Positions 18,538-64,000 of a DNA stretch of 64,000 nt are shown here, in pieces; the stretch's first letter is position 1, and each line of letters begins with the position of its first letter. The notes below the pieces were generated by a model. It was given only the letters and a program-made list of their open reading frames with translations, ran no database searches and was not told where the DNA came from. This DNA comes from Ruditapes philippinarum (lineage: Eukaryota), in NCBI RefSeq assembly GCF_026571515.1, contig NW_026858768.1:124001-188000 (forward strand), written 5' to 3'. A program made the position numbers and the translations under genes.

Positions 18538-18582
18538 AAGGTAACAGTTTGGGTCGTTGCTCTTTGTCACATTTTATACAAA

Positions 18583-33900: not shown

Positions 33901-36654
33901 GTCTAGAATCAGTGTTCACAGCTGGCTAGTGTTTGTAACAGCATGTCTGTCCATGATGATAGATGTCGGCTTCATATTTTCGTCCGGTGCCTTGTTTGTT
34001 GATATCATGAACACATTCTCCACGAGCAGATCCGGTGCCGCTCTAGTCCAGTCAGTCCTTATGGCTGTGAGGTTCGGGATAGGTAAACATTTTACTCGCG
34101 TATAATAAGTTATTAAACCTATTTCTAATTTTCCAAGATAATTCACTGACCAAACTGGATAAAAACTTATTTCACGAGGAACAAATTCAATTCAGTTTTG
34201 AGTTTTTGAAATTAGACTACAAATATTGGATCAATTTCATTCTATCCAGTCACAAGCATTTGTTTTAGATTTGAGAGATTTAAATAATGCATTTATGCTA
34301 AATCTGCTTTGGTGATTTAATTAAGTTTTTAAAGCATCCTGCAAATAATGAAATTGCATTTTATGAGTTTATACTGTATATGCATATGTGATGGCTGAAT
34401 TTTGTTGCGGTATTTAAACATATTCTACGTTTATGTGAATAGGTATGGTAAGTGGGGCTGTGGTTCAGAGATTTGGGGCGTTGAAGGCAGGTTTCTTCGG
34501 ATCATGTTTGGCGTCAGCGGGTTTGATCCTGTCCTACTTTGCAACCTCGGTCATATTTCTCGTTTTTACCATGGGTGTTTTATTGGGTACACAGGTTTAT
34601 ATACTTACATGAAATATTGAAAAATATTATATATGGTTTGAATTTAAGTCGTACTAATGAGAAATGAATAGTAAAAATATCTTCCCGCAACACTTTGTTC
34701 ACATTCAAGGTATATAAATCGTACTTTTAGCATCTAAACTTTAAGATTGATGAAGAGTGATTGTTTGACTTTTATCTATATAGAACTATATGAATAATAA
34801 TTAATATTGATCAAATATTTTTATATAAATATCTTTTTTTTTGCAAATATCTGTCAAATTAAACATTATTGTCTTACGTTGTTTGTGGGTCACCTTTTTC
34901 ACATATATTCTTTTCAGCAATGGGGTCGTCTTGCTTGTTCATTGCGTCTTCCGTGGCAGTTGGTCAACATTTCAAGGGTAGAACAGGTCTTGTACTCATG
35001 TCTGCACAGAGTGCCGGCGGGGGATTAGGTGGCATGCTGTACCCGTTCGTACTCGAATACCTCGGGTAATTGGACTTTACTTTATGATTTTACAGTAGAT
35101 TTACAGAGATTTTCGCAAGTGGTTTCTTTTCGTAGAAATATGAAGTAGTTTTGCTTATACTTTCCATGAAGAAATTTTAATGAAATAATGACAGTTATTA
35201 CTTGTGCAAATTTCAAAGTTTTGAATGAAAGTCTAATTTAAGATCAGATAGCCACATACAGTAATTGTCTGATATTTAATACGTTGTGGTTATGTATATA
35301 ATAGCATAAATTTAAAGTATGCCCAAGTTTTCAAAAGATTAACTACTTTATAAATGTATATATTTTGTGAAATGGACTTACACATTTATACTTCAGAGAT
35401 CAGTTTGGCCTAAAAGGAGCGTTGTTGATAGTAAGTGGATTATATATGCAACTAATTCCAGCATCATTACTGTGGAAATCACGCGAAAAACGTGTTAAAA
35501 ATGCGAAACCCGATATTGACAAGCGTAGCCGTGATAAAACAGACGAAACGTTAGAAGAGAAAGATAGGGAATATACTAAATTCATTGAAAGTGTAGATAA
35601 ATATGAGGATATATCAAAGATAGACTCTGATGACACGCAAGACAGTGTGTTGATTGAACGACAGATTACCGCTATAGACGATCTACGGGAACGTAAAAAA
35701 TATCAGATACAAAGAGACGATGATATTGAAACAAAACTTGGCAAGGAAGAATCTGTTTTTGAAACTCTGAAACAATTAGCATTTAATCCTAGTTTCGTAT
35801 TATTTGCAGTAGGAATGGGAGTGGCATATCCTGCGTTAGGAATTCTATTTATATTTATTGTAGATCTATTTTTAGATGCTGGTTTAACTGAGGAGGAAGC
35901 ATCGTTGGGACTACTTCTGGTTCACATGTTCAGTATTTTTGGAAGACTGGTTCCTGGCATAATTATGCAATCGGGACGGATTTCAACATTGTCTGTTCCT
36001 ATATTTGCTGCTTTAGTGACGTCAGGAGCAATGGTAGGATTGGCGTTCGTCCAAACACTAGAAATCAATCTATTTTTGTGCTGTTTGATTGGTCTGCCTT
36101 ATGGAATGTTCGTATCGGTTTTCAGTGTGACGTCGTTGAAACTCGTTGGAATAAAACGACTTTCAAATGCAATCGGAGTGTTGTTTACTCTAAACGGGTT
36201 AGGAAGTGGATTGGCAGGACCAGTTAGCGGTATGTACAGACGTATTATAACTATATAGCTACAATTATACATTAATTGAAACATGTTCAAAAGTAACAAG
36301 ATGTCGTGGTACCAAGACAGAAAAAAAAACCAAGTTACGAATGTGATAAAATTCAACCAAAGTAAACATATTCCAATGTGTTCCCTTACCCCGCTTTTGT
36401 CTTTTTAGTATGAATTCCTGAGATCAGAAATAAATTATTCAACATGTACTTTATTGGTTCCAGGTTTACTGAGAGATTCTATGGGTTCCTATACCATACC
36501 ATTCCTGATAGCAGCTGGAGTCGTATTTGCTGGTTCCCTATTATTCTGCGCGTCTCTACACGTACGTCGGCAACATAAACACTACATTACAGAGACAACC
36601 ACTCTCTTGCAGGCCGGGAATCAGACTGCCATATCAAACGGTGCCACGTCGTGA
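33901..36654 (+). CDS. SLC16/monocarboxylate-transporter-like MFS protein; first coding exon not located
   Basis: Phase-consistent GT-AG exons: 33901-34082 (SWLVFVTACL...TFSTSRSGAALVQS), 34443-34586 (VVQRFG...GLILSYFATS), 34918-35065 (AVGQHF...GGGLGG.LYP), 35397-36229 (FGLKGALLI, large central loop, GRL, LVGIKRLSNAIG, AGPVSG), 36464-36654 (GLLRDSMGSY..PF). Confidence 0.9.
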
Positions 36655-42288: not shown

Positions 42289-45200
42289 ATGACATCATTG
42301 TTTGGACTTCCTCGAAATGTGTTGGCTAATCTGTCAGATACAAGTGAGGTCGTTGCTAGGGGAGAAGACGAGGTGGAGAAGTTGAAAGTAGTTGGTGGGA
42401 AGCCGCTCGGTAGATATATTTTATATCATTCACACTGAACTGTTACATAAGTTTATAAATTGATTTATACATTTCGAGTCAGCTTCTTTGAACTCACCAG
42501 TACTGTCAAATGTGGAGGCATGATATATACCCGAGTTGGGCTCGAACCCATGCCCTGGGGTTAGAGAAGACAGACACATGTACCAAAAAAGCCACTGCTA
42601 TCGAGCGATATAACTACAAGACGATTACACCGAATTTATAATATTGTATTATTAATCAATCAAATACACACTAAGCTTCTTGCAACATTTCTTTAAAGCT
42701 GCATACCTTCAGATAAGCAAAAGAATTTCAAAAAATAACTGACCTTTAAGAAACTGTACACAATTTTTTAAGTAAAGATAATGATTTACATGTTATGTGC
42801 GATTAAGAACTGATTTTGTAGTATTTATTACAATATTTCTAATGCGTTACTAACGCAGTTAGACATTTTTCTGCATATATTTTTGACCTACTTGTCTGTA
42901 ATTAACGTGGATAGCAAGTGCTCTTTGTAATGTTCTTTGTTCACTTCACAATATCTTACTTTTAATTTTTATGAAGACAGCATGTATCTGGAGGCATGCT
43001 GCTTTAACTCTAAGCCTATTGCCAGCTAACCAGTGCAGGCCAAGCCGGCACATCCGTTTCATTAGACCATGGTCTGCACTGTACGTTATTCAGTATGTAC
43101 ATATTTTGAAATGTTTGTATTAATTCGTGTATCATTTGAGGTGACAGTGGGAGCATACTGGACTTTTTCAACAAAGATATAACTGATGCCGCTCGAGATG
43201 AAGTCTTGTTTACCATGGTAGCTCAACTTTATACTATTATACCAGTCATTGTTATCATTCGTAAGTTCGTCAAATTAATTTGTTTTTTTACTTTCTATAA
43301 AATATTGAGACAAACATACATAAATTGTCACGCCATTTTCTTTAAATATTCCAGCAAACAGTATTAATATACCAATATTTAAAACTTTATAAATATATAT
43401 TAAGAAAAATGTGACTTCCTTATACATGATTACACATTTACGTCACTTATTTTGATCTTTAAACATTGACATTTACTTGTGTTTTAAGGTTGTTCTGTAA
43501 AGTTTTGACCTCATGGGAATGTCGTCAACATATCCCGTTTCTAGTGACATTCCCTGAAATATTTTAGCAAACATGTACAACAAACTATCCCCTTTCTGCA
43601 AGTGTTTTGGGAGTATTTCTGCTCCTATGAAACGGTATTTGACACGTTCTCATCTTTACGTTTTGTCATGAATTACGTGTACAAAGCAAATACCCATCTT
43701 TATGTCATGTCATGTAGCACGTGCGGAAAGAGATGTCTCGATTTACGTTATGTCATGTGTTCAACTAAACGTTATGCTATGTGACAAGACTTAGTGTTCA
43801 AAGAAATGTTGACATCTTCATGTTATGGGTGTAAGGAAATGTTGATGATTTTGTATGTCATGTTACACGTGCTCTTGTTTTTACAGTATGTCAAATTGGG
43901 TTTGCTATGGTACAGAGCGGAGCTTCACGGGTAGAAAGTGCGGCGGTACCATTTGTAACAAATATTCTAGTTTCAGGTACATGATATTGTCTTTCATATT
44001 ATCTGTTGACTTGTCATCGTACATGTGATTTGCTGTAACCTTGATATCAATGATTTTTATAGATACATTTTTTGTCGCATTAAAAGGACTATTGGTAATA
44101 AGCGATGTGTTATAATTATACGGAAGTGTGGCGAAAAGGACCAACCAGTTGGATTGGTTCTTAACATTAGTTTCCATTATCGTACATAACGTAAAGGATT
44201 ACCATATTTAAAATTTTAGAGATTTTTTATATCATATATCGATCCTACCAAACATACAAATCTTTATTCTGTTTTCTTTGTCTTTAATTTTAACTATGTT
44301 GTAAAATACAATTGTATGCATTATTCAAATACAGTTACATCAAGTTTGTCATTCTGGGCAGTTGGATATGCCCTGTCAAGATCGGAAGGTCTAACGGCCC
44401 TGGGATATCACCATTGGTTTAGTCACGATTTCGAACAGGAACTCTCTGTTGATTGGCTATTGCAGTTCAGCCTCGTTCTAACCACTGCTAACATTGCGAC
44501 ATCTGGCGGTCTAGAAAGATGTCCGATTTACGTTTACTGTTTACTTTCACCCATTATAGCAGGTAATACCAGTTTCATTTCTTATTAATTATCTTTTTAT
44601 TATCATTGTGTATTTTTATCATAACAAAAAATACTTAATTAAGACAATTACATTCACAAAAAAAATATATTTTTCAATTTTCTATATGTTATGCGTAACC
44701 GCTTGTTCAACAAAACAATTTCTAGAAAACCGATAGTGATTGGATGCATTGTTTTATTTCACAGGGGTCGCAGCTTCTCTGTCAGGCCGATGGGCGTGGC
44801 ATCATAACAGCTGGACGATTTCACATTGCCCGTTTGAAGGAGTTTCTTATAAGGTTAGACTATGTTAATACTTTTTAGCTCGACTATTCAATAAGAATAA
44901 GTAGAGCTATTGTAGTCACCCGAGCGTCGGCGTCTGCGTCGGCGTCGGCGTAACCACTTATGTTAAAGTTTTTGTAATAGTTTAAATATTTTCAAGGTCC
45001 ATTGACATATGGCTTTGAAACTTTGCACACTTGTTCATCATCATGACCCCAACCTGTAGACAGGAGGAGGTAACTCTATCAAGCATTTGGCCAGAATTAT
45101 GCCCCTTTTTCGACTTAGAATTTACGTTAAAGTTTTTGTAATAGTTTAAATATTTTCAAAGTCCATTGACATATGGCTTTGAAACTTTGCACACTTATTC

Positions 45201-48200
45201 AACATCATGACCCCAACATGTAGACAGGGGGAGGTATCTCTATCAAGCATTTTGACAGAATTATGCCCCTTTTTTGACTTAGAATTTACGTTAAAGTTTT
45301 TGTAATACCTCAAATTTTTTCAAAGTCCATTGACATATGGCTTTGAAACTTTGCACACTTATTCAACATCATGACCCCAACATGAAGACAGGAGGAGGTT
45401 ACTCTATCAAGCATTTTGACAGAATTATGGCCCTTTTTCGACTTAGAATTTACGTTAAAGTTTTTGTAATACCTCAAATATTTTCAAAATTCATTGACAT
45501 AAGGCTTTGAAACATGTTGAAATTTTATACTCTTCTTTGAGAGCATAATATGACATTCCAAGGCCTATAACGGTAATATGGATTTAAAGAAAAATTTTGC
45601 CTTTTTCTTTACTTACAAAATTTTACCTTTTCATCAAGGCTTTTTTTACTATCAAGCACTAAGAATAGTCGAGCGTTGCTGTCCTACCGACAGCTCTTGT
45701 TTTACACTCTTGATATATTCATTATTCTATTTTCAGTCCGTTTAACCGTCTGTCTGTTCAAAAAAATAGATGACCCGAAAATCCATTAAGGTAGAAAGTC
45801 CTTTTGTCTGTTCAAATTTTTTTGCGGCCTTAAGTCTATTTGGGAGTTTCATGATGTTTGAATCGATTGTTTATGTATTTGTTCTAAGCTAAGGACATGA
45901 GCAACATGACAAATGCACCATTTAATGGTCAAGGTCACAGTTTAAGTTAAATGGTTTGAGATGAATATCTTCTGTCCGATAAATATCACGTGCATGCACT
46001 TATTGTATGATATTAAAAATGTTTATGTCAATGGAAGGATAATAATACGTTAAATTTGCTTAATAAAGCGAAACATGTATAAGTATATGATTTTTTACAT
46101 TATATGAAGTGCATTTTTGGCAATACAATTTTCATGAATAAAACTTATATTTTACTAAATAAGCTTAAATAACTATTTCGATTTCTGTTGACAATTATTA
46201 TCATGTTCAATATTTTAAGGACCAGGGCGGAAGTGGTGTCATCCACATGGTCGGTGGATCCTCGGCACTGGTATTGTCCCTTATGCTCGGACCTAGGTAC
46301 AGTCGAATTAGGGACACGAGGTCTAAAATACTGTTTAACGATCTTGATGGACACTCACTGCCGGTAAGATTATTTTGTATATCATTGAGGGATGAAATTC
46401 TTTATTATCTTTTTCATAATCAATGAATCCGTTAATCAAGCCGTTGTGGTCTGCAGGGGATTTGAAACAACAACAATAATAACTATTTAGAACTCGTTTT
46501 AATTTCCTTGAAAACATTTTTCAGCAAAATAAGGAAAAGAACATTCATTATTAATTCTAGGAATGCCCTTTGTCCGTCACCCTGTCTGTATGTCAGTCTT
46601 TCTGTCTGTGTGTCCGCTCCATATTTCCCACATTCTGTGAATGATTTTTACGAAACTGGGATCAAATATTAAGTTCACTTAGACGATGTAAAGGAGATAC
46701 GAGTCAGCTATTTTGGATCAAGGTCACTCTTGAAGGTCGAATGTCCTGTGTTTCGTGTCCGCTCCATATCTCTTAAATTCTTTAAAAGGTTTTCATAAAA
46801 CTGCTCAAAAGTTCAGTTCACTAAAACCGTATTATAAGAGCTCGTTCAACTGTCCTAGATAATGGTCAGCTGTATTGCTACAAAGGTATCGTGGTGGGGG
46901 ATATAGCTATCCTTTGGACTGCCCTGTGGTACATAAAGCCTCGGTCTCACTTACTCCCGGCAGAGCCCAGGACCATCCCGGTAAGTTACCGGGATGATCC
47001 GGGACGATCCGGGATGAAATTATTGTTGCGGTCACACTTACCCCGGCAGCACTACGGTAGTTCTCTACTAACCACCCAGGATGCGCTCCGGATCATCCAG
47101 GCAGAGCCCAGGTGAAGCTACGGTTCATGCCGGTGCTTCCCCGGTCGTTCCCGGATGACGCCGGAAGAGCCCCGGTTGACCCAGGCAGAGCCCCGGTCGA
47201 TCCAGGCAGAGTCCCGGCAGAGCCCAGTACGATCCAGGCAGAGCCCCGGTAGAACCCCGGTGGATTGAAAACGCCCGAAAATGATAACATTGATACATAA
47301 TTTTTATATAATATAATATCTATTAGTAATTCGTGATGATTTTCTGAAAAATCCTTATGCCATACTGGATAGAAGCGAAATGGGAAGGGTTTTAATACAA
47401 ACAAGTGCAATCATCGCAAACTGTCGTTATTCTTTTGAAATGATCCGGGCTTTGCCGGGGCTCTACCGGGATCAACCGTAGCTCTACCTTTATCCTCCGG
47501 GGCTCTGCCTGTAGTTACCGGGGCTCTGCCGGCATATATCGGGGCTCTACCGTAGCTCTACCGTAGCTCTACCGGCTCTATCATACCCCGGATCATCCCC
47601 GGTTTGTGCCGGCAGAGCTACGGTGCTTTCCCGGTATAACCCCGGTCGTTCCCGGCAGAGCTAAGGATGAAGCCGGCAAAGCTATACCTTCCCGGATCAT
47701 CCCGGACCACCCCGGTAATATTAAATATTTTATTCCATCCGGGGTCGAATGCCGGATGTTCCCGGATCATCCCGGATCATCCAGGACGTTGCCGGCAGAG
47801 TTACGGATGTACCCCGGTTGTTCCCGGTCGTACCCCGGTCGTTCCCGGATCACCCCGGACGTCTACCGGGGCTCTGCCGGGGCTCTGCCGGGATGTAAGT
47901 GAGATATTGGGCTATGCGTGCTACAGTGTTAATTTTATTTATGTTTTGTTAATTTATGATTTACTCTAATTTTTCGCTATCTTGGGTTTTAGGCTATAAG
48001 AGGATACCTCGGTACTTTTTAATTTCAGTAGGTTACGCCTGCTTTTTAGCATCTACCTATTACATCTACGTTATATAGTCTATTTTTATTCATGTTTCAA
48101 TGTTAAATGTCTGTACCTATATAAGTTAAGATTTGAAATAGACACAAATGTTACTTAATCGGCTACCTTTTTTTGTATTTTAGCTCGAGATTATTGGATG

Positions 48201-51200
48201 GTACTTTAATGTCATCTGCTACATTTGCTGTAACTTCGTTCGTCTGACATCCACGTGCATCAAGTGTCATTCAATAAGTTATGTCGTGGCACATGCTCTT
48301 GTAAACAGTGTGATAGCAGCTTCATCCGCGTGTCTGGGAACATATGTATTTATATCTATCATGAAGTCTTTGATGGTAAGAACACCTTTCAAACTTCTAT
48401 ATTATATTTTAGATATTGTTTGTTAGATATAGGTAACAACATTGTGTATTGTAGCTCAGATGCGCATTGATATAGTTACTATAGACCTTAGTGATTAGTG
48501 ATATAGACCTTAGTGATTAGTGATATAGACCTTAGTGATTAGTGACATGACAACCTGTGCATCATATACATATAATAATGTAGTTCTGTAAAACGTCCAT
48601 TCTGCTCATAGGAGAAGGACCAATGAGAATTTGACAGAATACCAGTGATATGATTGATTGCTGAGAAATTATCTTAGCGATAATAAACCGGACGGACTGT
48701 CAGGTAGACGGACTTTCCTTCTGTCGGTGGTATGAAATACAAATATACAACTTCCAGTTATAAATGAAAATTTCAAGTTAACCTTTTTTATATTATTTTC
48801 AGGGTAGAATACGCTTTCATTATCTTTTATCAAGGCAACTTGCTAACGGAGTCATTATTGGAATTGTAAGTAAACTATAATTTTATCATTTCAAACATAT
48901 AAAACTAAACTGTTTTTGTTAATTATCATTTCAATCGCAAACTAAGTTTTTTGTTGATAATCAAACAGTTTGACATACAGCCCTTGAGTTGTTATGATTA
49001 TTTTTAGAAAGACAAATAATAAAAAGAAATAAACTGATCGTATATGTTATAATTCGACTCGTTATTTTATATGGTCTTTTTTGTTCAGATTTCAGTTGCC
49101 GCCGGAAGTGACGTATATGCGCACTGGGCTTCGTTTGTTGTTGGTATTACAGCGGCTATAACTTATGTGATCTGGTGCCAGTTATTATATTTTTTCAGAA
49201 TAGACGATCCTACAGGCGTCATAGCTGGTATTATTTTTAATTTCTTTGCTATTATTACTATAGATAATTGTTCATATTGTTTATGCATAAGCTTGTCTAA
49301 GTCGAGCTGCTATGATCGTTGTGGTCGTGCAAAAAACTTTAATGTAGTCTATTATTCAAACATTTCAAAAGCTATCATCATTGAATTTGGTATGTTTGTT
49401 CTTTATGGTGAAGTTGTTTCGCTAGGGGTATGATTCTGAAAGCTTTATTTTTGAAGTTATACCTTTTTTAACTTATAATTCAAAATTGCTCATTCATAAG
49501 GCGACCGGTGGTGCTCTTGTTAAAAATGAAAGTAAAAGTACAGCTACAACTTAAAAAAAACCAACATGTTTGACAAATAATCATTCTACTTATTTTTTTA
49601 TTGAACAGTTAAATATATTAACAGCACAGCATTACTTTGGGTTTATTTGCAGTTTTGTAGTGATGGCGTATCATACAGAGATGAAAAGTTTTGCCTTTGC
49701 CTTACACTTTATTTAAGATCGAATTGACATAATGATGAATTAGAACTGATATATTGGTGTATGCACTTTCCTGGTATTCATGCATGTCTCATTTCTATTT
49801 ATAGTACATTTGGGCGGTGGTCTGTGGGGAGTTATATGTGTCAACATACTGAGGGAGGGTAATGGACTAGTTTTTGCAGATAACACATCAACCGCTGCAT
49901 TGGTAATGTTCTTTTGTACTTTATTTGTTGGCATCTCAAAAACTACCGAAGAGAATGGATTGAAATTTTACACACTTATTTGAGAGCATAATAGGAGGTC
50001 ACTGTCAAAGGCTCATAACTCTTTGACAGAATTATGACACTTTTTGAACTTTGAAAATTCTTCAAGGTCCAGGCTTTTGTTTCAAGCACTGAGAATAGTC
50101 GAGTACGCTGTCCTATCGACAGCTTTTGTTTGTTTTGTGTTGGCAAAAAAAATGATGTGAATATCGTAAGGATAAAGCTATGTATATAAATGACTAAAAG
50201 GGAAAAATATACCATTTCAACCCCATATGTTCAAAATGTTAACATAGCTAGATGCACAGCGGACTGACATTTTCTCTTCTAGTGTTCTGTAAAGCTTACA
50301 TTGGTTTGATTTAACATTATCGTGATTTTAATGGCATGTGCCAAACATAATCAGTTAATCACGACGACCAGTTACAAAATCATATTCAAGACTGAAACTT
50401 TGGCGTTGTTTTCTTTCCATATATTTTATCAGACTGTAGGCGTACCGCCTAAGACTCAAAGTTTTTAGATTTGTATAATTCTTTGAATTATTATAAAACA
50501 AACATCAGGAAAAAGAAAAACAACAAAACGCTTACAATTTGGCATGCTGAGGCTTATGGACGGATGTAATTCAAACAATAAACAACATTTTTACGAAAAT
50601 TCAATAATTTTAATAAATGAATATTTCAAAACTCCCTTTTAGCAAAGTTCGAAATATCGCAAAACGTTTAAAAACATATACAAATAATACAAATAATATT
50701 CCATATTTTAAAAGTATATCGTCTGTTTCATCATCTGAAAATAGAATAGATTTATTTATTTATTTGTTTATTTTTTTTTTCAAAATGAATTATAGTCATA
50801 TAAACTTTTATAATATCAAACGTCTTACTTATCAAATATTAATGTTCTTGCAAGAGAAGTTATGTCGGTGAATTCATACGCGAGAAAATGTGCCTTAATT
50901 TAGGTTACTAGTATTTTGTTTTTGCATAGCAACGAAGCACGACTTAAAAAGGTCTATAAAAATGTTGTTATTTAGCGTTCATGTTGATTCAGCGAAAATA
51001 GTAGCAGAAAACGATATGTGAAATGAAACGAAACTATAAAAAACTAAAACACGATTTAATATGAATATCAAGTATGTATAAAGCGCAATGCACTTACTTT
51101 TCTATGAGTTTCCATTTGGAAGATCGTACACATTCTTGTCGCCTGCATTAATATCGGAAACATCTGTAAAATAATAATTTTCAAACAAGTATGCGTTATT

Positions 51201-54200
51201 CTAGCAATTAACGATAGGGCATTTAAGTAATATAACAAACGGCACCAGCCTATTCTCTGTTGTTAACCTTAGTTGGGCATTTAATTAAGTCAGATTTCCA
51301 AACTATATACATGTAACTGAAATAAACTGGAGAAATAAAATGAGCTTACCTATGAAATCCGAATAGGCTTTTGGTTTGTTGGGTTTGTTTGCTGATTGGT
51401 TGATGTCGGTCTCCTTGGCAATAGCTGACAAACTCTGTGTGACAGCAATGTCGGCTATTTCTAGAATCATAAAGAATAAAGTTCTTGTCATAAATAATTC
51501 CTTTGAATTGTACTCGTATATTGTGCAACATTCATAATGAATCAAATGGATAAATTTTGTCTTAAGGAGATTCTTATGATAGTTATTTTTTTCAAATTAA
51601 GTTCGACTTATAGATCTATGAACTTTCTTATCTTTGGGTTTTTTTATTATTTAATCTTCGGTTTTATCTCACTTGTGCTTTAAAAACAACAATTGGTGTT
51701 ATATATATTTTGTTCTTTGCATTGAATTCTACTTACGGCTGATCACACTTGATGTCATGGAAATATTGTCGTCTGCCTCAACTTTGATCAGTTTGGTGTT
51801 GCTTAGCAACTGTGAGTCACACGTCAATGTGTCGACTGCTGATTTTAGAATTCCTGCTACATATTCCTCAACTTTTATGAAAGATACAAAAAATAAGAAA
51901 TTTGCAAAGTTATTTAATAGTACAGTCCCTGAGGACCTTTTGTGTGCAAAAAAGGTCCATAGATAAATCTTATACCAATGTAAAGCTAAATGTTTGAAGT
52001 TTACAAAAATTTTGGGTAGACATGTCGGATCATGGTACGTTTTGAGAAATCCAAGATGGCCGCCAAGATGGCCGCCAAATTATTGAAAAATGGCTAATAC
52101 GCAATTTTATATGATAAAATTAGTTCTTTTTGTATTTATTTTGGTACAGGTGATGTTAAAAAAACTTCACATCCTATTGGAACAATATGAAAATGGGAGG
52201 CATTTCCATTATTTTTTCATATTCTCTGAATTTCATAGATCAATTTTTGCTAAAAAATGCATGAAAAAATTATCCAAAAAAATTGATAGTGGGGCTGACA
52301 TTTTTTTCCTACCAGCTAAAGGCTTAGCGGTGTAAATGAATATTTTTACCAATATACTACAAAGACTTGAAACAAGATCATACTAATATCACCTTATTAA
52401 TTTAATCTTTACTGTAAAAAGAATGTGGGATCTGATATTCTTAAAGTGGTGGGGTAACGAAAACTAAGTCTCAGTATTTTGTTAACTGGTTTGGTTATGA
52501 TAATTAAAACTATGAGTAGTCAACATATATATTGCACTTTGGCATGTACCTAAAGTTATAAATAATTAAGAAACTAAGACTGATATTTTTGTTTATCAAT
52601 ATTCAACATGTTCTGTTGCCATGGCAACGGAGAAGTAAAATGAAAGACACACCTGAAACGTATGACACTTTCAACTTTTAGCATTTTAAGCATGTTGTTA
52701 AGAATGACACAAACTTACAGATAAATAATCTGTGCACAATGCCATGGTAACAAATTGAAAAAAAAGTAACATTAAAAGAAGTCACATTTCATTCTAGCAA
52801 ATTATCAACACAGATAACAGCCGATATTTTGAAATTTGATGAATAAATTTATTTCAAGAATTTGCATCATGCATTTGCTTTTTTCAAACTGCTATACATA
52901 GAAAAAAGGTCATGTTAAATGTGAATGTTGTTATGTTTGGAAAGGATAATTAATGGTGATAATAATAAGTAAAAGGCAGTCTTAAGGTAGAAATGTATAT
53001 AAACATTATCAAATGTTTGAAACTGTACATAGGGTAAACATTTAAGACTTTGCAGCTAAAACGAGAAATAAATAGGTCACTGGTTCAAATTCTAGGTCAA
53101 CCAATATCAAATTTTAATGACAATCGAATTTATTGTTGAGTTCAAACTTTTTGGTTATAGCTTGTATTATGAAATTCTAACTTGCATTAGATAAAATTCT
53201 AGGTCAACTGATCTCAGTGTATAATTCTGCATCTGAATTTTTACAATCAAAATACAAAGAGAATACTAGGACAGGTTTAGGTCAGCTGGCATGTCATATT
53301 GTGTCTGTTATCCAAATTTTGTTAGCTTCAAAAACAAGAAAGTAAGTCACGAAGTCTTAAATTCTAGGTCACCTTATAACAGTGGGGCCATGATTTGGAC
53401 AATCAAAGAGGAACACAAGACAATTCTTCCAACCAAATGGTCTTGCATTGTGGTTTCTGACATAAAGAGTTTTTTTATATAAAAATCGACATCTAAGCAG
53501 GGCCATTTTTATGCTCCCCGAAAAATTATGGGGGAGCATATAGTCGCCGGGCGTGTGTCCAAAACCTAGTCGGGGAGCATCACCTGGTTCAACCGGTTCT
53601 TGTTTTAATCCAGACTCATGATCATTATTTGATGCCTGCAAACTTAGCACTTTACGGAGAGTGTCGGATGTGAAGTCCAGGCGTCTCTTGTTCCACAGAC
53701 AACAATTGATCTCGGACATTGAGTTTTACGGTCATTTGTCTGTCAAGCTTAGTAGAAATTGGTCATTACTCTTCTGGTTATTTATCCATGAAAGTCAGAT
53801 AGTTCAACCAACCTTCAAGCTATCAACAAAGAAGTGTTGAAATTGGCGTATAACCCAGACCCGGCCCTTTCATGATTTGAAGAAACATGGTAAAAGTCTT
53901 CTAGAAATTGTTTCACATGCTCTAAACAATGGCGTTAAAGGGATGATTTTATAAAGGATTTTATATATAAGTTAGACTATGTAAATCAATTGACCCTTGG
54001 GAAAGGTTATTATAATCAAACGGATCATGCTTTTACCAAGCTTAGAATTTGTGTATTATTTCTATTATATGATTTATATCTTGACATAAATTGATATGGT
54101 CATAGAATGAATGCCTCACACTTAAATATCAAAGCATTTTATTTATGGAGAAGATAGTTTTCAAAGCCTTTAAAATAACTAAAAGTATACTAAAATACTA

Positions 54201-57200
54201 AAACAAGTAAAATGACTCCTTGGGTTAGGTCCACTTTGACCAGATTGTCAAGATTTGAAAAATAAATTAAGTTTTTTTTGACAATGCTTTTAACCCAAAA
54301 TCTAAGATCTGGGCATTTGGTTTTGGAAAAAAATATGATTTTAAAAAGTTTTCCTATGTGTCTCCATATGAAATAAGTTGACCCTAGGGGTGGGTTAAAT
54401 TTTCATTTGAATAAATTTTGTACTGGTCTATACAAGGCTACAACAGAAATAATTAGCTATAGGCATCAGTATGGGAGAAGTTATTTTTTTAACCTTTTCC
54501 TATATGTAAATTGAAGTGACCCCTGGCATAAATGAATTTGACCACAAGGTCGTGATTTCAGCAAATTTAATAGTATTATATACTAGGTCCTGCAGTTATG
54601 GAGAAGAATATGTTCATGTTTTTTCCTATATTTACACTGTGTAAAGAAAGTTTACTCCGGGGCTTCGCAAGAAACATGAATGTGTACTTCTTGACCTTTT
54701 ACCAACCATGACCTTGATGTTGTGCCATGTATATCATAAGCACATAGTCTCACGATGGTGATTATTTGTGCCAAGTTATTTAAAATCTTCCATAAAGTTA
54801 TGGAGAACATATAACATTGACCTTGGTTGCAGCGACCTGGATGTTGAGGTCTGTAAATTGTGTCGTGGTGGGGATCATTTGTGCTAAGTATTTTAAAAAC
54901 CTTTGAGTTGTCAATAAGTTATAGAGCGGACATGAAAAAAAAATTTTTTACATTGGACCGTTGAGTGTGAGGGTGGTGACTTGCTTATTGTGCTCTGCCA
55001 ATGGTGTCATAATGTTGATCATTTCTGTCAATTTATCTTAAAAACGTTTCAGAGGTTTAAAAGTAAGAGACAGACGCGAAATGTAGACTTTCTAACATAT
55101 GAGCTGTAAGTGTGACCCTGACCTTTGGGGTAGCAATTCAATAATTGCGATCTGCACATCGTCTCATAATGGTGATCAATTGTGCCAAGCTATTTAAACA
55201 AAATTTCATAGGTTTAAAAGTTTTGGAGGGGACACGAAATGTAGATTTTTATTCATTTGACCATGGCCTTTGGTGTAGCAACCCAATGTTTGCGTTCTGC
55301 ACATGTTCTTATACTGGTTATATTTGTGCCAAGATATTTTTTTTTAATTTCAGCGGTTAAAATGTTGGAGCGGACACGAAATTTAGACTTTTTTACATTT
55401 GACCTGAAAGTGTGACCTTAACCTTTTGTGTAGCAACCCAATTATTGCGCACTGCACGTCGTGTCATAATAGTGATCCGTTGTGCCAAGTTCTTTCAAAC
55501 CTTTACAGCGTTAAAAAGTTATGGAGCGGACATGAAATGTAGACTTTTTAACATATGAACTTGACCTTAAAGTGTGACCTTGACCTTGGGGGTAGCAACC
55601 CAATTATTGCGCTCTGCATATTGTCTCATTATGGTGATCACTTGTGCCAAGTTATTTCAAAAAATGTTCAGGGGTTAAAAAGTTATGAAGCGGACACGAA
55701 AGTGTTATGGACGGACGGACTGACAGACGGAGTCCATTCCTATAATCCCCTTTCCGCGGAAGGTGATTACTGATTAACAATGTTGGTTTAGTCCCATCTG
55801 AAAAAGCCATACATATAAAAGTTCAAGATCTTTTTATTTATTTCTGGGAATATTTGAAAACATTACGCATTGTCAGTTTTATTTTTAACTTCTGTGACTT
55901 AGATATACAATAATCCGATTTGTGCAAAAAACAACAACAAAACAAAATTTCTGTCAAATTTTATCAAATATAGCCTATTTTTACGTCACATCAACACTTT
56001 AAAAGGCTTTGTGGCGACTTTCCTGCTTTACTGAGGAAGACCTTAATATGTTTCTCTCCGTGCATTATTTCATAATATTGACACCTTCTGGTCATCTTTT
56101 AAGGCAAATCAGAATTACGAAGTCTATAAGAAAGTGAAATTTGGATTATTCAAATAAAGAAAACAGTAAAACTGTTTGTAAAATAAAGAAATCAAGGTCA
56201 TATGTTCATCTTGATTCCAAATTCAAATACGTCCTGAACTTAATCTTAATTTGGAACACACTAGTGTTCATGTGCATTACATACTACCGGACAATTTGAG
56301 AAATGCTGTTTTTCCTCATCTCCAATTACATTGAAACTATGGTTTTAAGACTGCACTTATATAATGACTTATCTAAAACAGAAAGCTTATATGAATTTTG
56401 GATACGTTCAGCCGCGGGTTATTTCACATGATTTATTGATATTTATTGATGATGAGAAAATAACGTAACTGTATCAGTTGATATGATTACCAATGTCTTT
56501 GAGATTTTATTTGAATGTTACCTGTATATCAGTTATAGCTTATTACTACGTGACGACAATTTACATACTTTTTTGTGTGAGTGGAACAAAAATCGCTCCC
56601 AAAGTTTTACAAACACATATGTGTCTTATAACTGATAAAAACGGTCTAAAACAAAAGCAAAATTTATCATTACACCAAATTTATTCAGTGCCTTTCTGAT
56701 ATATATATAGCATGTTCAAATGGGTTAAAATCAACAAATTTATATCATAGTTATAAACATTAAAAAAGAATACTCGACATTAAATGAAATTTCAACAATT
56801 ATACAAATCTAGATATGACTATGTAAAACTATTTGCATATAAACATACTCTTAAATTCTTTTCAACGTGATTTATAATAATATTATGAAACAGACCGCCA
56901 TCTTTTTAAATAGTCACATATTTCTAAAGAACGAAGTGACAAAACTCATATTGTTTACATATCGGAATTACTTATATTGTATAATTAATTTGAGACTTTT
57001 AAGTTTTAGTTTTGTGTACATTCTTCTGTATCTTGTTCTTAATGTATACTAGAGTTTCTCCCCTCTGTATCCGATTTTCAATAGGCAAAACAATGGAGAT
57101 TCTATACAACGTTTTAGGGATTCTGTTTTTCTCTATTTTAATGAGTTTAAATGGAGGGGTTGTTTTTGGTAATAAGACAAGATACCATTTGATGAACAGT

Positions 57201-60200
57201 CGGGAGTTTGTTGATGATCATTTAAGACATACTAACCGTATAACAAAGCATTAGGTGGTCTGACCTGTAGGTCACAAAATAATTTATAAAGAATTCTGAG
57301 GCAACGGTGAATATGGCCTATTTTTTTTTGCGTAACAAGACATCTATACAGGATTTATAATTTATGCTGCTCTATATTTTTTAGAATAGAAGAAAGTGTC
57401 AAATATTTAACACAAAATGGTGATTTTATCCATGTTTCTCCAAGTGTTACAATATTTCAGCTGGGCTTGTATTGCATTGAGATGAGAACACAATCATTTA
57501 GGTTTTCCAGATGCATCTATGGCACATTATCTTGAAGACGTTCTTCATCACAACATATTGACATATTGTCTATTCCTTCTTATCACATTTGATCTGTGGG
57601 ATTTTTTTTGCTTTATTTGTTATTTATTATTATTATTTAATGACCAATAAATGAAGAATGTTGAAAACTTTTTCTCAAATCGGGCCAAACATCAAGCATA
57701 AATTTTATTTTTCAATATAACTCTTGAGTAGATTTCATTATTATCTTTGCCTCTAAAACTTTAAGCGTTTTAATGTTACAGTAACGGTTCAGCAAAATGT
57801 TACCGATGTTTTAATTAAAATTTGTGTTTTTTCATAGAAAGTAAATGTATTGAAATTTGAAATGATTTTTTTATGTTTCAAATGTATCCAACTCTGAATT
57901 CTGTAATGCATAATCATGACATTAACTTCTACAACATGCTTGAAATGATAAAACTGAAAGCCTCATACGTTTCCGGGTTTCTCTCATTTTTAGCTCGACT
58001 TTTCTATGAAAAGGGGAGCTATCCTACTCGCCCCGGCGTCGGCGTCGGCGTTGGCGTCACACCTTGGTTAAGTTTTTCGTACCACCCCACTTTATTTCAG
58101 AAGTATTACAAGTATGGCTTTGAAACTTACCATACTTGTTCACCATCATAACCTCCATCTACAGACAAGAGTACATAACTCTGTCAAGGTTTTTGACAGA
58201 ATTATGGCCCTTTTTTGACTTAGAAAGTGTATTGAGCTTGGTTAAGTTTTTTGTACCACCTCACTTTATTTCAAAACCATTGGAGGTATTGCTTTGAAAC
58301 TGACCATACTTGTTTACCATCACGACCTTCATCAACAGACAAGAGGACATAACTCTGTCAAGGTTTTTGACAGAATTATGCCCCTTTTTGACTTAGAAAA
58401 TACATTGAATATGGGTAAAATCCACTTATTGCCTTAACCCTTTGAGATATTGCTTTGAAACTTTTAATGCTATTTCACATCATTACCCCCATCTGTACGC
58501 AAGAGAAGGTAACTCTGTCAAGGATTTGTTTTAAAAATTAAGGCCTTTTATCGACTTAGAATCTTGGTTAACTTTTTTGTACCAGTCAACTTTTTGACTG
58601 AACTGGTTGAGATATTAAATTGAAAGTTGGAATACTTGTTTACCATCATGGTCCCAAAACATGGGCAGGAGAAGGTAATTCTGTTAAGGATTTTATTTGA
58701 ATTATGGCCCTTTTTGACTTAGAAACTCAGTTAAAATTTTCATTCTTGTCCACTTGTTGACTTAACCATTTGAGATATTACTTTGGAAGTTGGAGTTCTT
58801 ATGTGCCATCATGAGACCTATCTGTAAGCAAGAGAAGATAACTCTGTGAAAATGTTTCTTGATTTGTACTTAGAAATTCCTAGTTAAAGTCTTGTGTGCC
58901 CTTAACTGTCAAAGTTTTGTTTTATAGGCAAGCACTAAAAAAGTCGAGCGCGCTGTCCTTCTGACAGCTCTTGTACCACTATGTTGCCATGGCAACAGAA
59001 CCAATTTATGTTGTTGGTAGAATGAAAATCTACCTTTTAAAAAATTAAAGACTTAAGAACATTTTAAAATGTAATCTTGTTGGTTATTCTTAGTCTTAAT
59101 AATCATTATATATCAGTTCACTAGAAATTGGGACTCAATTTTCGTGTACCCCACCCACTTTAGGAATGTCAGAATCCACATTCTTACACAATAAAAATAA
59201 AAATAAGGGTACATTTAGTAAGTTGTTGATCAGGTCTTTGTATAATATGGTAAAAATATTAGTTTTCACCACTATGCCTCGACTGATAGGAAAAAATGCC
59301 AGCCCCATGTCGATTTTTGATACTTTTTCATGCTTTTTTAGCAAAATTTCTCTATGAAAACAAGAGTATATGTATAAGAAAAAGGAAAAGGACCCCTTTT
59401 CATATTGTTCCAATAGGATGTGAAGTTTTAACATCACCTGTACCAAAATAAATACAAAAAAGAACTAATTTTATCATATAAATTGAGTATTAGCCATTTT
59501 TCAATAATTTGGCGGCCATCTTGGCGGCCATCTTGGATTTCTCAAAACGTACCATGATTTGACATGTCTACCCAATTTTTTTGTAAACTTCAAACATTTA
59601 GCTTTACATTGGTATAACATTTATCCATGGACCTTTTTTGCACACAAAAGGTCCCCAGGGACTGTACTATAAAGTACAATTTTAAGTATGAATGCGTTTT
59701 CTTATTGTAATTCTATAAACATATAGTTTAAGATCTAAATGTTCTGTTTTATTTTATGCTTTTCAGTGGATTACTGATTTATCCGTGAAAATTATATTTG
59801 ATAATTACACAGTGAAAATTATCAAAATATAATTTCACTTTTTTCAATGACGAAACTACTTTTTTAAGATTTTCCCCATGTGGTACCTCAATTTTATTTT
59901 TACCGACAATTCTGACAATGTCAGGCTGTTAAAAGAAATAGCAAAGCTGAAATAGATAAATAACTTAAATGTCAAAAGTAACACAGAGAGAAAACTTACT
60001 TCTATTCCTTCAAATTCCAATCACCAAATTTTGTCTCTAATTTTTTTTTGTTTCGTTTTTACAGTCTGAAAAATACATTCCTTCCCCATGCAAAACGGGC
60101 TCTTGATGACATTTGGGCATATTAAAGTATCCTACGAGCAATAACTGCCGTATGCTTTATGAAAAATTGAAAAGCATTGACAGCCATCATTCGTAAAATA

Positions 60201-62637
60201 AGTTAAAACAACCCAGCGTTCCTTCAGCAAGCTTCCAATTTTTCCATTTTCCTAGCTCCTTTTCTGAATGTTTTCACTTCTGTCAACACTTATTTTTTGT
60301 CTGTTACAATCCTCAAATAAGTTTTCTTTCTTTTAAAAAGGTGTATGACTAACAAATCCAAATTATATCCTTCTGAATCTTACACAATTATTTTCCTCCC
60401 ATGAAATACACAACTTTAAAAAATGGCTGCCGTTTACATTTTAGAAAGCCAGGTCTAATATAAATTCGCAGTAAGTAACAGAAATATGGATGGATGGTTG
60501 GAATTTTCTCCTGCAAGAATTGTTTGTTTTTTATGATTAAAACAAGCGATCATTCATATTTTTTTAATAAAATGAATAAATATCACCGTCATTTAACCTT
60601 GATTGGCGGACTTATTTTTCAGCTCAAGACTTCTTGTTTTAAATGAGAAATTCCGTCTAAATGGGGCTCTCAATGGGGGAAACAGATTTTAATATTAACG
60701 TTAAAATTATGGAAATTTCGTTTTAACTTGTTTTTAAGCATAAAATAAAAAGAAAATTTGTCTGTTTGTTGTGTAAGATGTAATTTTATTTCATCTCGTG
60801 AACTTTAAAAACAGTATTCTCACTCGTGGCTACGCCACTCGTGAGAATACTGTTTTTAAAGCTCACTCGATGAAATAAAATTTCATCTTACACACAAACA
60901 AACAAATATCCTCTATATCATGTGTTATACATGTATGTATATTGAGAACGAATTAAGGTTACAATTTGAACTACGTCGAAAATGATAGAAAATTATGAAT
61001 TTTTCCCATCTTGATTTGGAACTTGAATTTACCTTGTCTGTCAAAGTCCTGGTCATTTATGGTCCTATTATGATGAGTATCTGTCAGGTAAGATAAAAGC
61101 TTATTAGAATAAACAGAATTTGAAATTAACCTCAAAAAGAATAATAATAAAAAAAGAAATTTCATATCAGAAACTTGAATAAGGCCACATGCTGAGAGAA
61201 TTCCACATATTGTTTAAAGTATACATGAATAAAGGTAATTATTAAAGCGTATTTATGATTATAACATATTAGGTAAACTATGTGATTGGAATAAAATTAT
61301 AGCCTTTTAGAACGTTAAAATCACTGATAAAACATACATGTAGATAAATATTTGTTTATTTTTTTAATACAATCGAACGCGTTGATATAACTGAATTCCT
61401 TTACGTTTTGAAAGAAATGTTCGAAATTCAAATTAATGCAAATATCAGTAAGTTATGTGTTATGATAATAACTTACGTAGTATTTAAAAATTCATCACAG
61501 ACATATTAAATTTGTACAAATTCATTACTTTTAATTATAATATTTTAAGTCAATACACTAAGTTACAATAATTACACTAGAAACAAACCTATGCCAGTGT
61601 CTTTAGAGGCTAATATATCCGGTATAACAATATAGGATTTGGTCAACACCATGTCCCTAGCGCCGGTCTCATCTATGATTGTCTCTGGGTCCACTCTCTG
61701 ACCCCTCCTGCCGTGCAAGCGGCGACGTAGACGGTTCATGATTCGAGCCCACTGTATAATTAAAATGATTATGGCCATGTGTGGTTTTATTTACATTTTA
61801 TTGTTTTCATTTTTGATTTTAAAAATTTGATTGAACATAATCTACTTTTTTCGGGGGAGCGGGGATTAAATATTTCTATATCTATTACACATGACAACGG
61901 GAAAAAGTTAAACGAAATTTGTTGTTTACAGTAAAATCAACGCTGATATATTAATACATATATTGTTAATGTCTTTCGATTATGTTACAGAAAATATTGT
62001 TCATCTATTCCTGCATAAAGTGAGGTCTTTCTCCAACTTAAAAAGTTCTAAAAATCGCCATGTGATCTCTACTGCCCCCCCCCCTTCCTCCAAACTAGGC
62101 TAGAGAGTAAAAAAGTAAAATTAAGAATGATATTACGGTAAGGATAATTAAAGTACTATATGTGTATTTACTCTTTTGTTACACGCATCTCTCAGTCTCA
62201 CACACCAAGTAAAACAGCCTGTTTTCTCGTCTTCAGACATTGCAAAGTATGTTGTCGTAGTCAACGCCAATGTTAAGTTTGTTATCGTTACTAAAGAGCG
62301 ACGTTGAACGTTTAATGACGTCATGACGTCAGATGAGAAAGGGAGATAATTCAATGTATTTCCGAATGCAATAGATTTATTAAAAACATTTAAAACATCG
62401 GGAACAATCACTTTACATGCCTGTCGCTGGTGACAACTATGTTGAGCTATGTCATTCTATCAACATGTTTATCTCCTTAACATTTTACTCAAGTGCTTTA
62501 GGTCGAATAATTGCCTTTCAGCCTTGAAAATAAAAAAAGGTATCGGTGATAATTCATTTTTTTATTATTTTGATTATTATTATTTGTTATTGTTGTTGTT
62601 GTCGGTGTAATTATTATTATCATCATCATCGTCGTCG

Positions 62638-62698
<61 letters not shown>

Positions 62699-63676
62699 TA
62701 TTATTTACAACAAGTCATAATATTGAAAATTAATGTTAATAAAACAACCGTTTTCTCAATTTTTATTTGTAAGGCAATATTATGGAACGTCATTATCGCC
62801 GTTACAATGGCAACACTCTCAGCATTGTTGACATGCGCCGTGTTACTGATTCCAAGAGGCTTAGACCTCGTACCTATCAAACATGGCCAGGAGATACAAG
62901 GTACGTTAGTTTCTTTCCATTCTTCTATACATAGGGATGACGTCATATATGTATGGCGCTATGCTTCGAACTTCTTAGCACAATCCGCAGAAACTTTGCT
63001 TTACGGAAACTGGAGGTCAGGAAGAAGGCTGTCTATCAGATGGTCATTTTTTCCGTCCATAGAAAATAATTACAATATCACACCACGCTGAATATTTCAA
63101 ATTGATTTGCCCATCACTTTATCTCTACAATACTAGTCATCATTTCAGGGAAAATAAAAATAGCTACCGATTTAACAGCAAGACCGGACGACACGGATGG
63201 AATAAGTTGCCACCTGGACACTCTATATTTATGGTGTCATTTGGAAGCCTTCAAATTAATGGCATAGATCTAGTTTTCATGTCAAAACTAGAAGTTGACC
63301 TGTTGATGTTTTCGGGTCTTGAGTTATAGTTGCACTTTTTCAAATATACAGCTCTTTGTTCTATTGAAATGTGATGAAATAAATTTGAGTTTATTTCAGT
63401 AATGAACTTTGTAATGGGTTTGACAATTTTGTTATTTTAAGATATTGTTTGACGTCTTAACATTATATCACATTACAATTGACAGAGTCAAGTTGTGACT
63501 ATTTGCTTTGAGCAGCTAACTACAATAAGATCATTACTGTGCATTACATGTAGAAGAATTCACAGATCTACTATCTAATAGTTTAATGATTGCAGGTATA
63601 GATATGGTATTCCTGCAACAACAAGCATATCCTAGTGGTGACATTGTTACACCATTTACAACAGATTTTATTGAAG
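42289..63676 (+). CDS. amt: Divergent ammonium transporter (Amt family), at least 12 exons, continues beyond the window
   Basis: Phase-consistent exons: 42289-42409, 43141-43260, 43887-43976 (CQIGFAMVQSG), 44335-44562 (FWAVGYA..WLLQF..ER), 44765-44853 (RWAW), 46220-46363 (DQGGSGVIHMVGG..LGPR..GHSLP), 48184-48375, 48803-48865 (NG), 49089-49227 (IDDP), 49805-49902 (VHLGGGLWG), 62774-62900, 63596-63676 (GID..AYP). The first two exons are the least certain. Confidence 0.9.
42697..43003. mobile_element. TTAA-flanked MITE in Amt intron 1
   Basis: ttaa|agctgcataccttcagata ... tatctggaggcatgctgct|ttaa, i.e. inverted termini with TTAA on both sides. Confidence 0.8.
44872..45700 (+). mobile_element. 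HINE/Helentron-like element in Amt intron 5
   Basis: Subterminal inverted repeats gctcgactattc / gaatagtcgagc, a (cgtcgg)n microsatellite, about 164-bp internal tandem units, a 3' hairpin gctgtc-ctacc-gacagc and a tcttgt end. Confidence 0.85.
46937..47913. mobile_element. GC-rich non-autonomous TIR element with CCCGG/GGCAGAGCCC subterminal repeats
   Basis: Inverted ends agcc..tctcacttac.tcccggcagagccc / gggctctgccgggatgtaagtgaga..ggct, with an AT-rich core at about 47280-47440. Confidence 0.8.
48478..48546. repeat. 22-bp tandem repeat, 3 copies
   Basis: Unit atagaccttagtgattagtgat. Confidence 0.85.
49935..50130 (+). mobile_element. 3' fragment of a HINE-like element
   Basis: gaatagtcgag..gctgtcctatcgacagcttttgt end, as in the 44872-45700 copy. 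Confidence 0.65.
51102..62240 (-). CDS. Uncharacterised ~195-aa protein; antisense gene nested in Amt intron 10 (candidate small AKAP-like protein)
   Basis: Six GT-AG exons with matching phases: 62240-62172, 61751-61589, 61080-61033, 51871-51737, 51460-51350, 51163-51102 (TAG). Total 588 nt with no internal stop. Confidence 0.75.
54660..55775 (-). mobile_element. Reverse-oriented HINE-like element with tgaccttgacc tandem units
   Basis: Repeated blocks gagcggacacgaaatgtagacttt / tgtgaccttgacctt / tgtgccaagtta, and a (gacg)n microsatellite next to tataatcccc. Confidence 0.65.
57987..58974 (+). mobile_element. HINE/Helentron-like element nested inside the long-TIR element
   Basis: gctcgactttt / aaaagtcgagc inverted repeats, (cgtcgg)n, internal tandem units, a 3' hairpin gctgtc..gacagc and a tcttgt end. 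Confidence 0.85.
60757..60906. repeat. 150-bp palindrome (about 73-bp arms, 3-nt loop)
   Basis: ...gtgtaagatg..attttatttcatc..ctttaaaaacagtattctcactcgtggc-tac-gccactcgtgagaatactgtttttaaag..gatgaaataaaat..catcttacac... Confidence 0.85.
62316..62331. promoter_or_regulatory. Tandem full cAMP-response elements (TGACGTCA x2)
   Basis: TGACGTCATGACGTCA lies 76-91 bp upstream of the nested gene's ATG. A third TGACGTCA is at 62938-62945. Confidence 0.65.
62570..62705. repeat. Compound trinucleotide microsatellite (att/gtt/cat/cgt)
   Basis: Direct reading of the sequence. Confidence 0.9.
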
Positions 63677-63769
63677 GTAAATATCTTCAGTAATTCATCG
63701 TTATTCCCCCCCCCTCCCTTTTTCAATTTTTTCACGCCAATTTTAATACATTTTTGCTAATCCCATATG

Positions 63770-63900
63770 ATTTCTGAATCGGCGGTAGGAAACAATTAAT
63801 GAGTCGATGTCCGATGTAGTTTGTCAAGGACCTAGGATTGAACCAGCGACCGCTATATTACAAATCTGATGCTCTCCCTAATGAGCTAAGCGGGTGGATT
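63770..63900 (-). mobile_element. tRNA-derived SINE head, reverse orientation
   Basis: The reverse complement reads ccacccgcttagctca...ggttcaatcc. A similar head (ccgcccgcttagctc) occurs at about 21222. Confidence 0.55.
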
Positions 63901-64000
63901 AATCTTTTATTCCAAATATAAAAGTTTCTGATAAATTTGAGTCGATCTTTTACTATGAATTGCATGCAGCAGAAATATCACGTCACAGATATTTGCTTTG

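Follow-up and report, generated by a model that had tools for sequence, protein, structure and literature searches.

A six-exon gene of Ruditapes philippinarum belongs to an unnamed clam multigene family whose proteins are candidate membrane anchors with two predicted helices

The 64,000-nt stretch of Ruditapes philippinarum DNA analysed here (termed the window; contig NW_026858768.1, positions 124,001 to 188,000 of the forward strand) carries on its minus strand a small six-exon gene that encodes a 195 amino acid (aa) protein. By sequence comparison this gene belongs to an unnamed clam multigene family with some 36 to 39 copies in the genome, and it likely lies antisense within an intron of an ammonium transporter (Amt) gene. 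The protein displays a Cys-bearing, Arg-rich N-terminal region and two further predicted helices. A first-pass annotation had proposed that it is a small, membrane- and cilium-targeted A-kinase anchoring protein (AKAP) with two helices for protein kinase A (PKA) regulatory (R) subunits. The features of the locus are listed in Table 1.

Table 1. Features of the small gene, of the insertion in its intron 3 and of the host Amt gene (window positions).
Feature	Coordinates	Strand	Description
Exon 1	62172..62240	-	residues 1-23; ATG at 62240; conserved G-C-F-x-W; also in RefSeq models P0001/P0008
Exon 2	61589..61751	-	residues 24-77; the Arg-rich half of the N-terminal helix is followed by [VIL]-D-P and a linker
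Exon 3	61033..61080	-	48 nt, residues 78-93; helix 1 begins here after an acidic linker
DNA-transposon-like insertion	51918..59669		7.75 kb; lies within intron 3 and has long, imperfect inverted repeats at its termini; TAA on both flanks
Exon 4	51737..51871	-	residues 94-138; helix 1 core, linker, Ser-rich beginning of helix 2
Exon 5	51350..51460	-	residues 139-175; helix 2 core, then N159 and S161
Exon 6	51098..51163	-	acidic tail; stop codon at 51104-51102
3′ UTR (untranslated region) exon, first 14 nt	50721..50734	-	loose end of X1 contig against window sequence
Host Amt exon	49086..49229	+	PF00909 positions 264-308
Host Amt exon	49805..49902	+	left of nested gene
Host Amt last-helix exon (putative)	62774..62900	+	127 nt, right of nested gene

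The small six-exon gene is real. An intact 195-aa frame is formed from six minus-strand coding exons, all of which have AG/GT ends. The first-pass annotation had quoted two helical segments, Cys residues, an Arg run and the RVDP sequence; all of these are present in this frame. Both helices are interrupted by introns and are thus present only after splicing. The extent that had been given for the gene, 51350..62240, is correct at its right end (the ATG at 62240), but the gene continues to the left with exon 6 (51163-51098) and a 3′ UTR exon from 50734.

A 410-nt contig from run X1, the kind of which was guessed as RNA, joins exons 4, 5 and 6. Its loose ends match exon 3 (30 nt, matching 61036-61065) and the 3′ UTR exon at 50734. 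The exon 3 end carries a letter that is specific to the window copy among the copies compared. In exons 4-6, however, nine variants were tested, and 8 of them are shared with each of three siblings. The contig is thus from an allele or a sibling and is not proof of splicing of the window copy itself. The exon structure is used, i.e. four predicted junctions are spliced in a near-identical copy; for junctions 1-2 and 2-3 the basis is the RefSeq models of siblings. A coding last exon at 50734, as an alternative, was rejected, as the spliced contig reaches this position after the stop codon.

The window protein shows 20 (P0001) and 21 differences in 195 residues from two R. philippinarum proteins annotated as uncharacterized in RefSeq. 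Another RefSeq model, P0002 (LOC132754210 isoform X2), takes exons 5-6 from the window copy and exons 2-4 from the upstream copy and is apparently chimeric; this is either a mis-mapping or genuine splicing between tandem copies. P0002 has no exon 1 and therefore no N-terminal Cys residues.

Run X6 gave no contig on the exons. In four raw-read runs over 19.9 kb, where repeats swamped the signal, the rows listed contain no joints between exons. Runs X21 and X22 are labelled RNA-Seq. They cover introns and exons alike, and many of their loose ends begin with GATC; for these two reasons they are read as DNA-like and were not used for expression. These properties suggest a DNA proximity-ligation library.

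Intron 3 is 9.2 kb long in the window copy, most of it made up by the inserted element, and about 250 nt in three siblings without the element. The inverted ends of the 7.75-kb element are similar to each other over several hundred bases, and the TAA is a target duplication; we take this combination to be a PIF/Harbinger-like signature. For the first 200 nt of the element the genome gives 546 candidates; 40 of these were scored, and all 40 match at 96-100%. No long transposase frame was found within 51918-59669, and nested repeats are present.

The insertion begins about 45 nt from the intron 3 acceptor, and the window copy could be a dead or decaying duplicate, irrespective of the role of the family. 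This would be compatible with each of the functional readings discussed below. It would fit the difference in exons 4-6 between the window copy and the sole spliced contig seen, and the depth in runs X23 and X24, which is 0 in the bin over exons 5-6 and no more than 0.18 over exons 1-2. Frame and splice sites are intact, however, P0002 uses exons 5-6 of this copy, and exon 3 of the contig matches this copy only. A loss of the window copy is considered unlikely.

The host Amt gene is on the plus strand, with exons from about 43.8 kb (43835) to 49902 on the left side of the small gene. On the right side, positions 62774-62900 have a clean acceptor and donor, and three other Amt genes have a last-helix exon of the same length and phase. 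Scored end to end without gaps against shuffles, this segment gives p values of 0.0001, 0.0003 and 0.008, which are post hoc, the exon having been spotted by eye and tested afterwards. In two duplicates, 4 of 5 and 6 of 7 codon changes are silent. The exon is undetected by Pfam, BLASTP, profile and pairwise searches. With Amt exons at 49805-49902 and 62774-62900, the host intron would therefore be 49903-62773, and the small gene is likely nested antisense within it. The flanking plus-strand exons are in favour of the earlier proposal of a nested gene.

A second tandem copy is present 9.4 kb further on and is duplicated together with the Amt exon. A comparable gene pair is found on contig C3967 with 80-92% identity. 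Near the C3967 pair the search for upstream Amt exons gave none; thus the nesting is probably incidental. The tandem duplication (G000:C7255:193457-195800; window 62169-64000) carried the small gene and the last two Amt coding exons. The exon 1 frame of the upstream tandem copy starts after a stop codon and has no ATG, and the RefSeq models there begin at Met28, without the Cys residues. The host Amt itself (43835-49902, 62774-62900) is divergent, with 28-45% identity to another clam Amt in the exons compared; one of its exons has a single match in the genome.

The first-pass annotation had missed the gene family. Exon 2 matches 36 places in the genome and exon 5 matches 39. These counts are lower bounds, and uncollapsed haplotypes may inflate them. 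The copies are found in tandem arrays and show lineage-specific bursts. In 20 distant loci, exons 1 and 2 are present in all 20, exon 4 in 18 and exon 5 in 19; the missing exons fall at stretch or contig ends. Database searches gave 16 representatives and 42 proteins. Named species with family proteins are R. philippinarum, Mercenaria mercenaria (many) and Mactra antiquata (one), and the protein searches gave no named match outside Venerida. The family includes the RefSeq loci LOC132754210 and LOC132743496 (R. philippinarum) and LOC123536997-9 and LOC123537602 (M. mercenaria), which are annotated as uncharacterized, without names or domain calls.

A full-text literature search, most subscription papers being outside its coverage, gave no paper with any of these six locus ids; among the papers listed on AKAPs and bivalves or molluscs, none describes the family as judged from the title and the start of the abstract. 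The six ids are absent from 8 supplementary files of PMC11514971. Searches for related sequences gave little: with the first five members Pfam shows nothing below E 0.02, and a PDB search yielded one unrelated match only (E 2.1). The ESM Atlas has no usable match for P0001 and one match at 0.79 for residues 88-175 of P0032, which is below the level reached by shuffled proteins. Longer or fused forms were also sought: among 7,995 candidates (406-2000 aa) none scored, which is weak evidence.

A tree of 29 sequences groups the window subfamily with four Mercenaria proteins (98/93) and shows 13 Ruditapes proteins as one recent burst (99/99). The tree is midpoint-rooted, and the Mactra branch is long. 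These groupings suggest that duplication began before the Ruditapes/Mercenaria split and continued after it. The pooled pairwise ratio of nonsynonymous to synonymous substitution (dN/dS) is 0.07-0.59 in seven blocks (13-20 of the 20 loci), with one stop codon among them; the lowest value of the gene, 0.07, is that of the last 13 codons of exon 4. By these sequence comparisons the family is under purifying selection. Two loci, C1454 and C4456, have kept exons 1, 2 and 4; exons 3 and 5 were not seen in the stretches examined (30 and 20 kb). The subfamily to which they belong (L012-L016) has kept the N-terminal anchor and helix 1 and has lost most of helix 2. Thus the earlier description of a dual-helix protein applies to the window protein, where both helices are predicted, but not to the whole family.

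The protein sequences were aligned in 36 rows from three species. Duplicates, single-exon fragments and five models without helix 2 (P0003, P0009, P0012, P0013, P0024) were left out. Seven of the 36 rows have no true N-terminus. With these 36 sequences AlphaFold2 predicts helices at residues 10-38, 87-115 (helix 1), 134-161 (helix 2) and 172-177. The pLDDT is 63-70 in the cores of the three main helices and 49.8 on average, and pTM is 0.20. The predicted protein is thus a disordered chain with separate helices. Neither a transmembrane nor a signal segment was found, the best 19-residue hydropathy being 1.1-1.35 in three members.

The first-pass annotation had pointed to three N-terminal Cys residues. 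All three are in the window sequence, but only C9 and C20 are conserved in the family (28/29 each); C13 is found in 6/29. W12 is invariant, as are many Arg residues of the N-terminus. Gly2, the site of N-myristoylation, is found in none of the 36 rows. C9 and C20, together with the hydrophobic residues 13, 16, 24, 27 and 31, are within about 80 degrees of one face. The net charge of residues 1-45 is +8 in four members from three species and that of the remainder is −6 to −13. Membrane binding by AKAP79 uses polybasic stretches and two palmitoylated Cys residues (PMC5698441). The Cys-bearing, Arg-rich helix of the clam protein is predicted to be a candidate S-acylated anchor on the inner membrane face.

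This same N-terminal helix could be a nuclear, nucleolar, RNA-binding or mitochondrial targeting element, with the protein acting in the nucleus or at mitochondria, for example via DPY-30 or another helical partner. Its high charge and many invariant Arg residues would be expected of such an element, and its averaged hydrophobic moment is not significant (p 0.20-0.37). The two Cys residues are conserved in nearly all members, however, and share one face with conserved Trp/Phe/Leu residues. Acidic residues at the extreme N-terminus are also unusual for a mitochondrial presequence. A role of this type appears quite improbable.

The number of copies, their tandem arrays and lineage-specific bursts, and the opposite charges of the N-terminus and the acidic part (+8 against −11 to −13) could also indicate an expanded defence or gamete-recognition family, with a cationic membrane-active N-terminal peptide that is restrained by the acidic C-terminal part. 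Such a family would be hard to reconcile with the lack of a signal peptide or transmembrane segment in the members analysed, with the lack of any block with dN/dS above 0.6, and with the position of the most conserved residues, which are in the acidic part. We consider it very improbable.

The sequence RVDP had been read as a ciliary-targeting motif. The form of this signal is (K/R/Q)VxP, with a fixed Val and a free x (PMC3172256). RVxP is found in 6/29 members only. Position 43 is Leu in 15, Val in 7 and Ile in 7, whereas D44 is found in 29/29 and P45 in 28/29. As the Val varies and the Asp-Pro is fixed, targeting to the cilium is unsupported, and this claim is dropped. In our reading of the alignment the conserved Asp-Pro is probably a helix cap.

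A basic segment starts at residue 24, with W/F24, F/M27, a basic R30 and L/M31. The AKAP79-type calmodulin site is a hydrophobic 1-4-7-8 pattern from a Trp anchor (PMC5698441). The clam segment is hydrophobic at positions 1, 4 and 8, but departs from this motif in having Arg/Lys at position 7.

Helix 1 has its core residues in exon 4 (V94, Y97, V98, I101, L102, A105, V106 and L109). It displays a significant hydrophobic moment (p=0.001) and a significant conservation moment (p=0.009), the directions of which are within about 26 degrees of each other. There is a conserved hydrophobic face, with V94 in 35/36, I101 in 35/35, A105 in 35/36 and L109 in 36/36 rows, and a variable back. Helix 1 presumably resembles the helices of Ht31 and AKAP79. 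In helix 2, I140 is found in 35/36 rows and A141, V145, S148 and L149 in 36/36; its conservation moment has p 0.007-0.016. N159 and S161, downstream of the core, are invariant. A141, V145 and S148 form an Ala/Val/Ser stripe at i, i+4 and i+7.

A review reports that AKAP-IS loses RII binding when a bulky residue is placed at position 9, 13 or 16, and that position 13 prefers Val (PMC13025221). The spacing of A141/V145/S148 is that of positions 9/13/16, and helix 2 thus follows the RII-type small-residue rule. Helix 1 follows it partly (V98, I/L102, A105). A pattern with small-residue constraints is matched by helix 2 in 35/36 members against 0.5% of 54,000 shuffles. A looser pattern is matched by helix 2 in 35/36 and by helix 1 in 27/36 members, and two such sites are found in 0.013% of shuffles. 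By this sequence evidence, the match to the constrained pattern is a good lead, not a test.

The genome has five matches to the RIIa-family dimerization/docking (D/D) domain, by which potential partners could be provided. From general features of these proteins we take them to be RII, RI, Sp17-like and RII-like, with one unassigned. Besides the RI, RII and Sp17-like genes, the five thus comprise a second RII-like gene and a short divergent one.

A number of observations weigh against a PKA-anchoring role. The spacing 1/4/5/8/9/12, on which the original proposal was based, is present in the sequence, but the loose consensus pattern is found one or more times in 24% of 13,500 shuffles and as two non-overlapping sites in 2.6%. 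A single match is therefore weak, and it is the conservation that carries weight. Shuffle rates of the stricter patterns also flatter the case, because the patterns were written after the sequences had been seen and the members are kin. Leaving out five models without helix 2 raised the apparent conservation in the alignment, and two related loci have no exon 5. In helix 1, Val and Ile/Leu are found where Ala and Val are favoured, and the sibling P0001 has Glu at position 105. In helix 2, position 8 is Ala, not a large aliphatic residue. The RI-biasing FA motif is absent: the pairs one turn before the cores are L/Q93-V94 and I/V136-I137 in the register that we assigned. With Pfam, 36 members and E values up to 10, there is no AKAP-related family among the best 25 of 26 families listed. 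To our knowledge, no AKAP family has tens of paralogs.

The R-binding helix of AKAPs is amphipathic and 14-18 residues long. Both segments had been described as amphipathic; this is correct for helix 1, but the hydrophobic moment of helix 2 is weak (p 0.37-0.42), and entropy is low on most of its faces (mean 0.44 bits). Such conservation on most faces is unlike that of a helix bound on one side; it would also fit self-assembly or another partner. An Ala/Ser stripe at i, i+4 and i+7 is typical of tight helix-helix packing as well.

These properties would be expected of an adaptor or coat protein that has the same membrane anchor, with helix 2 and the Ser-rich run preceding it self-assembling or being wrapped by a partner other than a D/D domain, and with helix 1 a generic helix. 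This explanation would better account for the all-round conservation from residue 128 to 161. Two features are not explained by a D/D groove alone: the 13 codons that precede the AKAP-like core are under the strongest constraint of the gene, and N159 and S161 downstream of it are invariant. The Pfam result would be expected here also. On the other hand, the one-sided pattern of helix 1 is that of a groove-binding helix, and the single-chain model (pTM 0.20) shows no packing between helices, although oligomers are invisible to it. An adaptor or coat is the second most likely explanation, though on balance doubtful.

The AKAP-like idea survives because both helices have kept their hydrophobic positions throughout the 36 family sequences; loss of this conservation was one outcome that the first-pass annotation had named as evidence against its proposal. 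The explanation that we favour, tentatively and at a little less than an even chance, is that the protein may be a palmitoylated polybasic membrane anchor that holds PKA-R or another D/D protein by one or both helices. That the partner is PKA-R is a serious possibility, but doubtful; that it is a non-kinase D/D protein (DDIP class, PMC12203939) appears fairly improbable.

The favoured membrane anchor would work as follows. An intact gene with many copies, under purifying selection as judged above, would provide the protein. Its helix 10-38 is predicted to be in the plane of the membrane, with C9 and C20 S-acylated. Helices 87-115 and 134-161 are predicted to remain free and to form no tertiary fold. 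The better RII-type docking site would be helix 2, whose groove-facing stripe has small residues, and helix 1 would be a second or weaker one. Speculatively, the anchor may be turned off in the manner of AKAP79 and smAKAP, by Ca2+/calmodulin on the Trp24-anchored basic segment or by phosphorylation of Ser residues in 131-138.

If the partner is PKA, Venerid clams may have built, apparently from scratch, 30-plus palmitoylated PKA anchors with two docking helices each, by separate bursts in Ruditapes and Mercenaria and with one-helix variants; this is a proposition that we hold to be uncertain and on balance doubtful. An AKAP family of 30-plus copies, if true, would be new, and the clam family could then titrate RI, RII and Sp17-like dimers, or sort them, at a membrane. 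One helix is nearly all that AKAPs have in common, and their origin is thought to be sporadic (PMC12203939). A lineage-restricted family with a one-copy Mactra outgroup and helix-loss variants would then be a series in which the birth and tuning of an anchoring helix can be studied. The finding would also give a name to a gene family of some size that is unannotated in two farmed clams. Should the helices have another binding partner, this would still be an undescribed conserved family of membrane adaptors, of moderate interest.

Other features are found elsewhere in the window. A 680-aa frame at 18508-20547 (plus strand) displays Mab-21 nucleotidyltransferase and Mab-21_C domains (cGAS-like receptor family). 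A B-box/coiled-coil/beta-propeller (TRIM-like) gene at 23734-25627 (minus strand) is in three frames split by stops or shifts and is possibly a pseudogene. A DXD glycosyltransferase frame is at 12365-13315 (minus strand), and an MFS transporter exon at 35371-36255 (plus strand).

Three known systems will be compared. In DDIP-class proteins, short helices bind D/D dimers of the RII-like, RI-like or DPY-30 kind, and no kinase is anchored (PMC12203939). An Sp17-like D/D gene is present in the clam genome and is a potential partner of this type. DDIP-class proteins are ancient, however, and mostly axonemal or nuclear, whereas the clam family is found only in Venerida, with nothing that ties it to cilia.

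smAKAP (AKAP19, C2orf88) is, like the clam protein, small, with an N-terminal lipid anchor and a short R-binding helix, both of them candidate features in the clam; a Ser within the smAKAP helix is able to switch binding off, and the clam helix likewise has a Ser (PMC13025221). smAKAP differs in being myristoylated and RI-specific with one helix, whereas in the clam family Gly2 is absent from the 36 rows, the FA motif is missing, there are two candidate helices, and searches gave no sequence match.

AKAP79/150 (AKAP5) and the clam protein have in common a polybasic N-terminus, two Cys residues, a Trp-anchored basic segment, a disordered chain and a downstream helix (PMC5698441). The clam protein shows no detected homology to AKAP79, has about half its length and departs from the 1-4-7-8 motif. 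AKAP79 is a single gene in vertebrates, against tens of copies in the clam. The clam family is not classifiable as AKAP at present and is a candidate only. If the favoured reading holds, the clam protein would work like a compact AKAP79 or smAKAP, by analogy, while being a member of neither by sequence.

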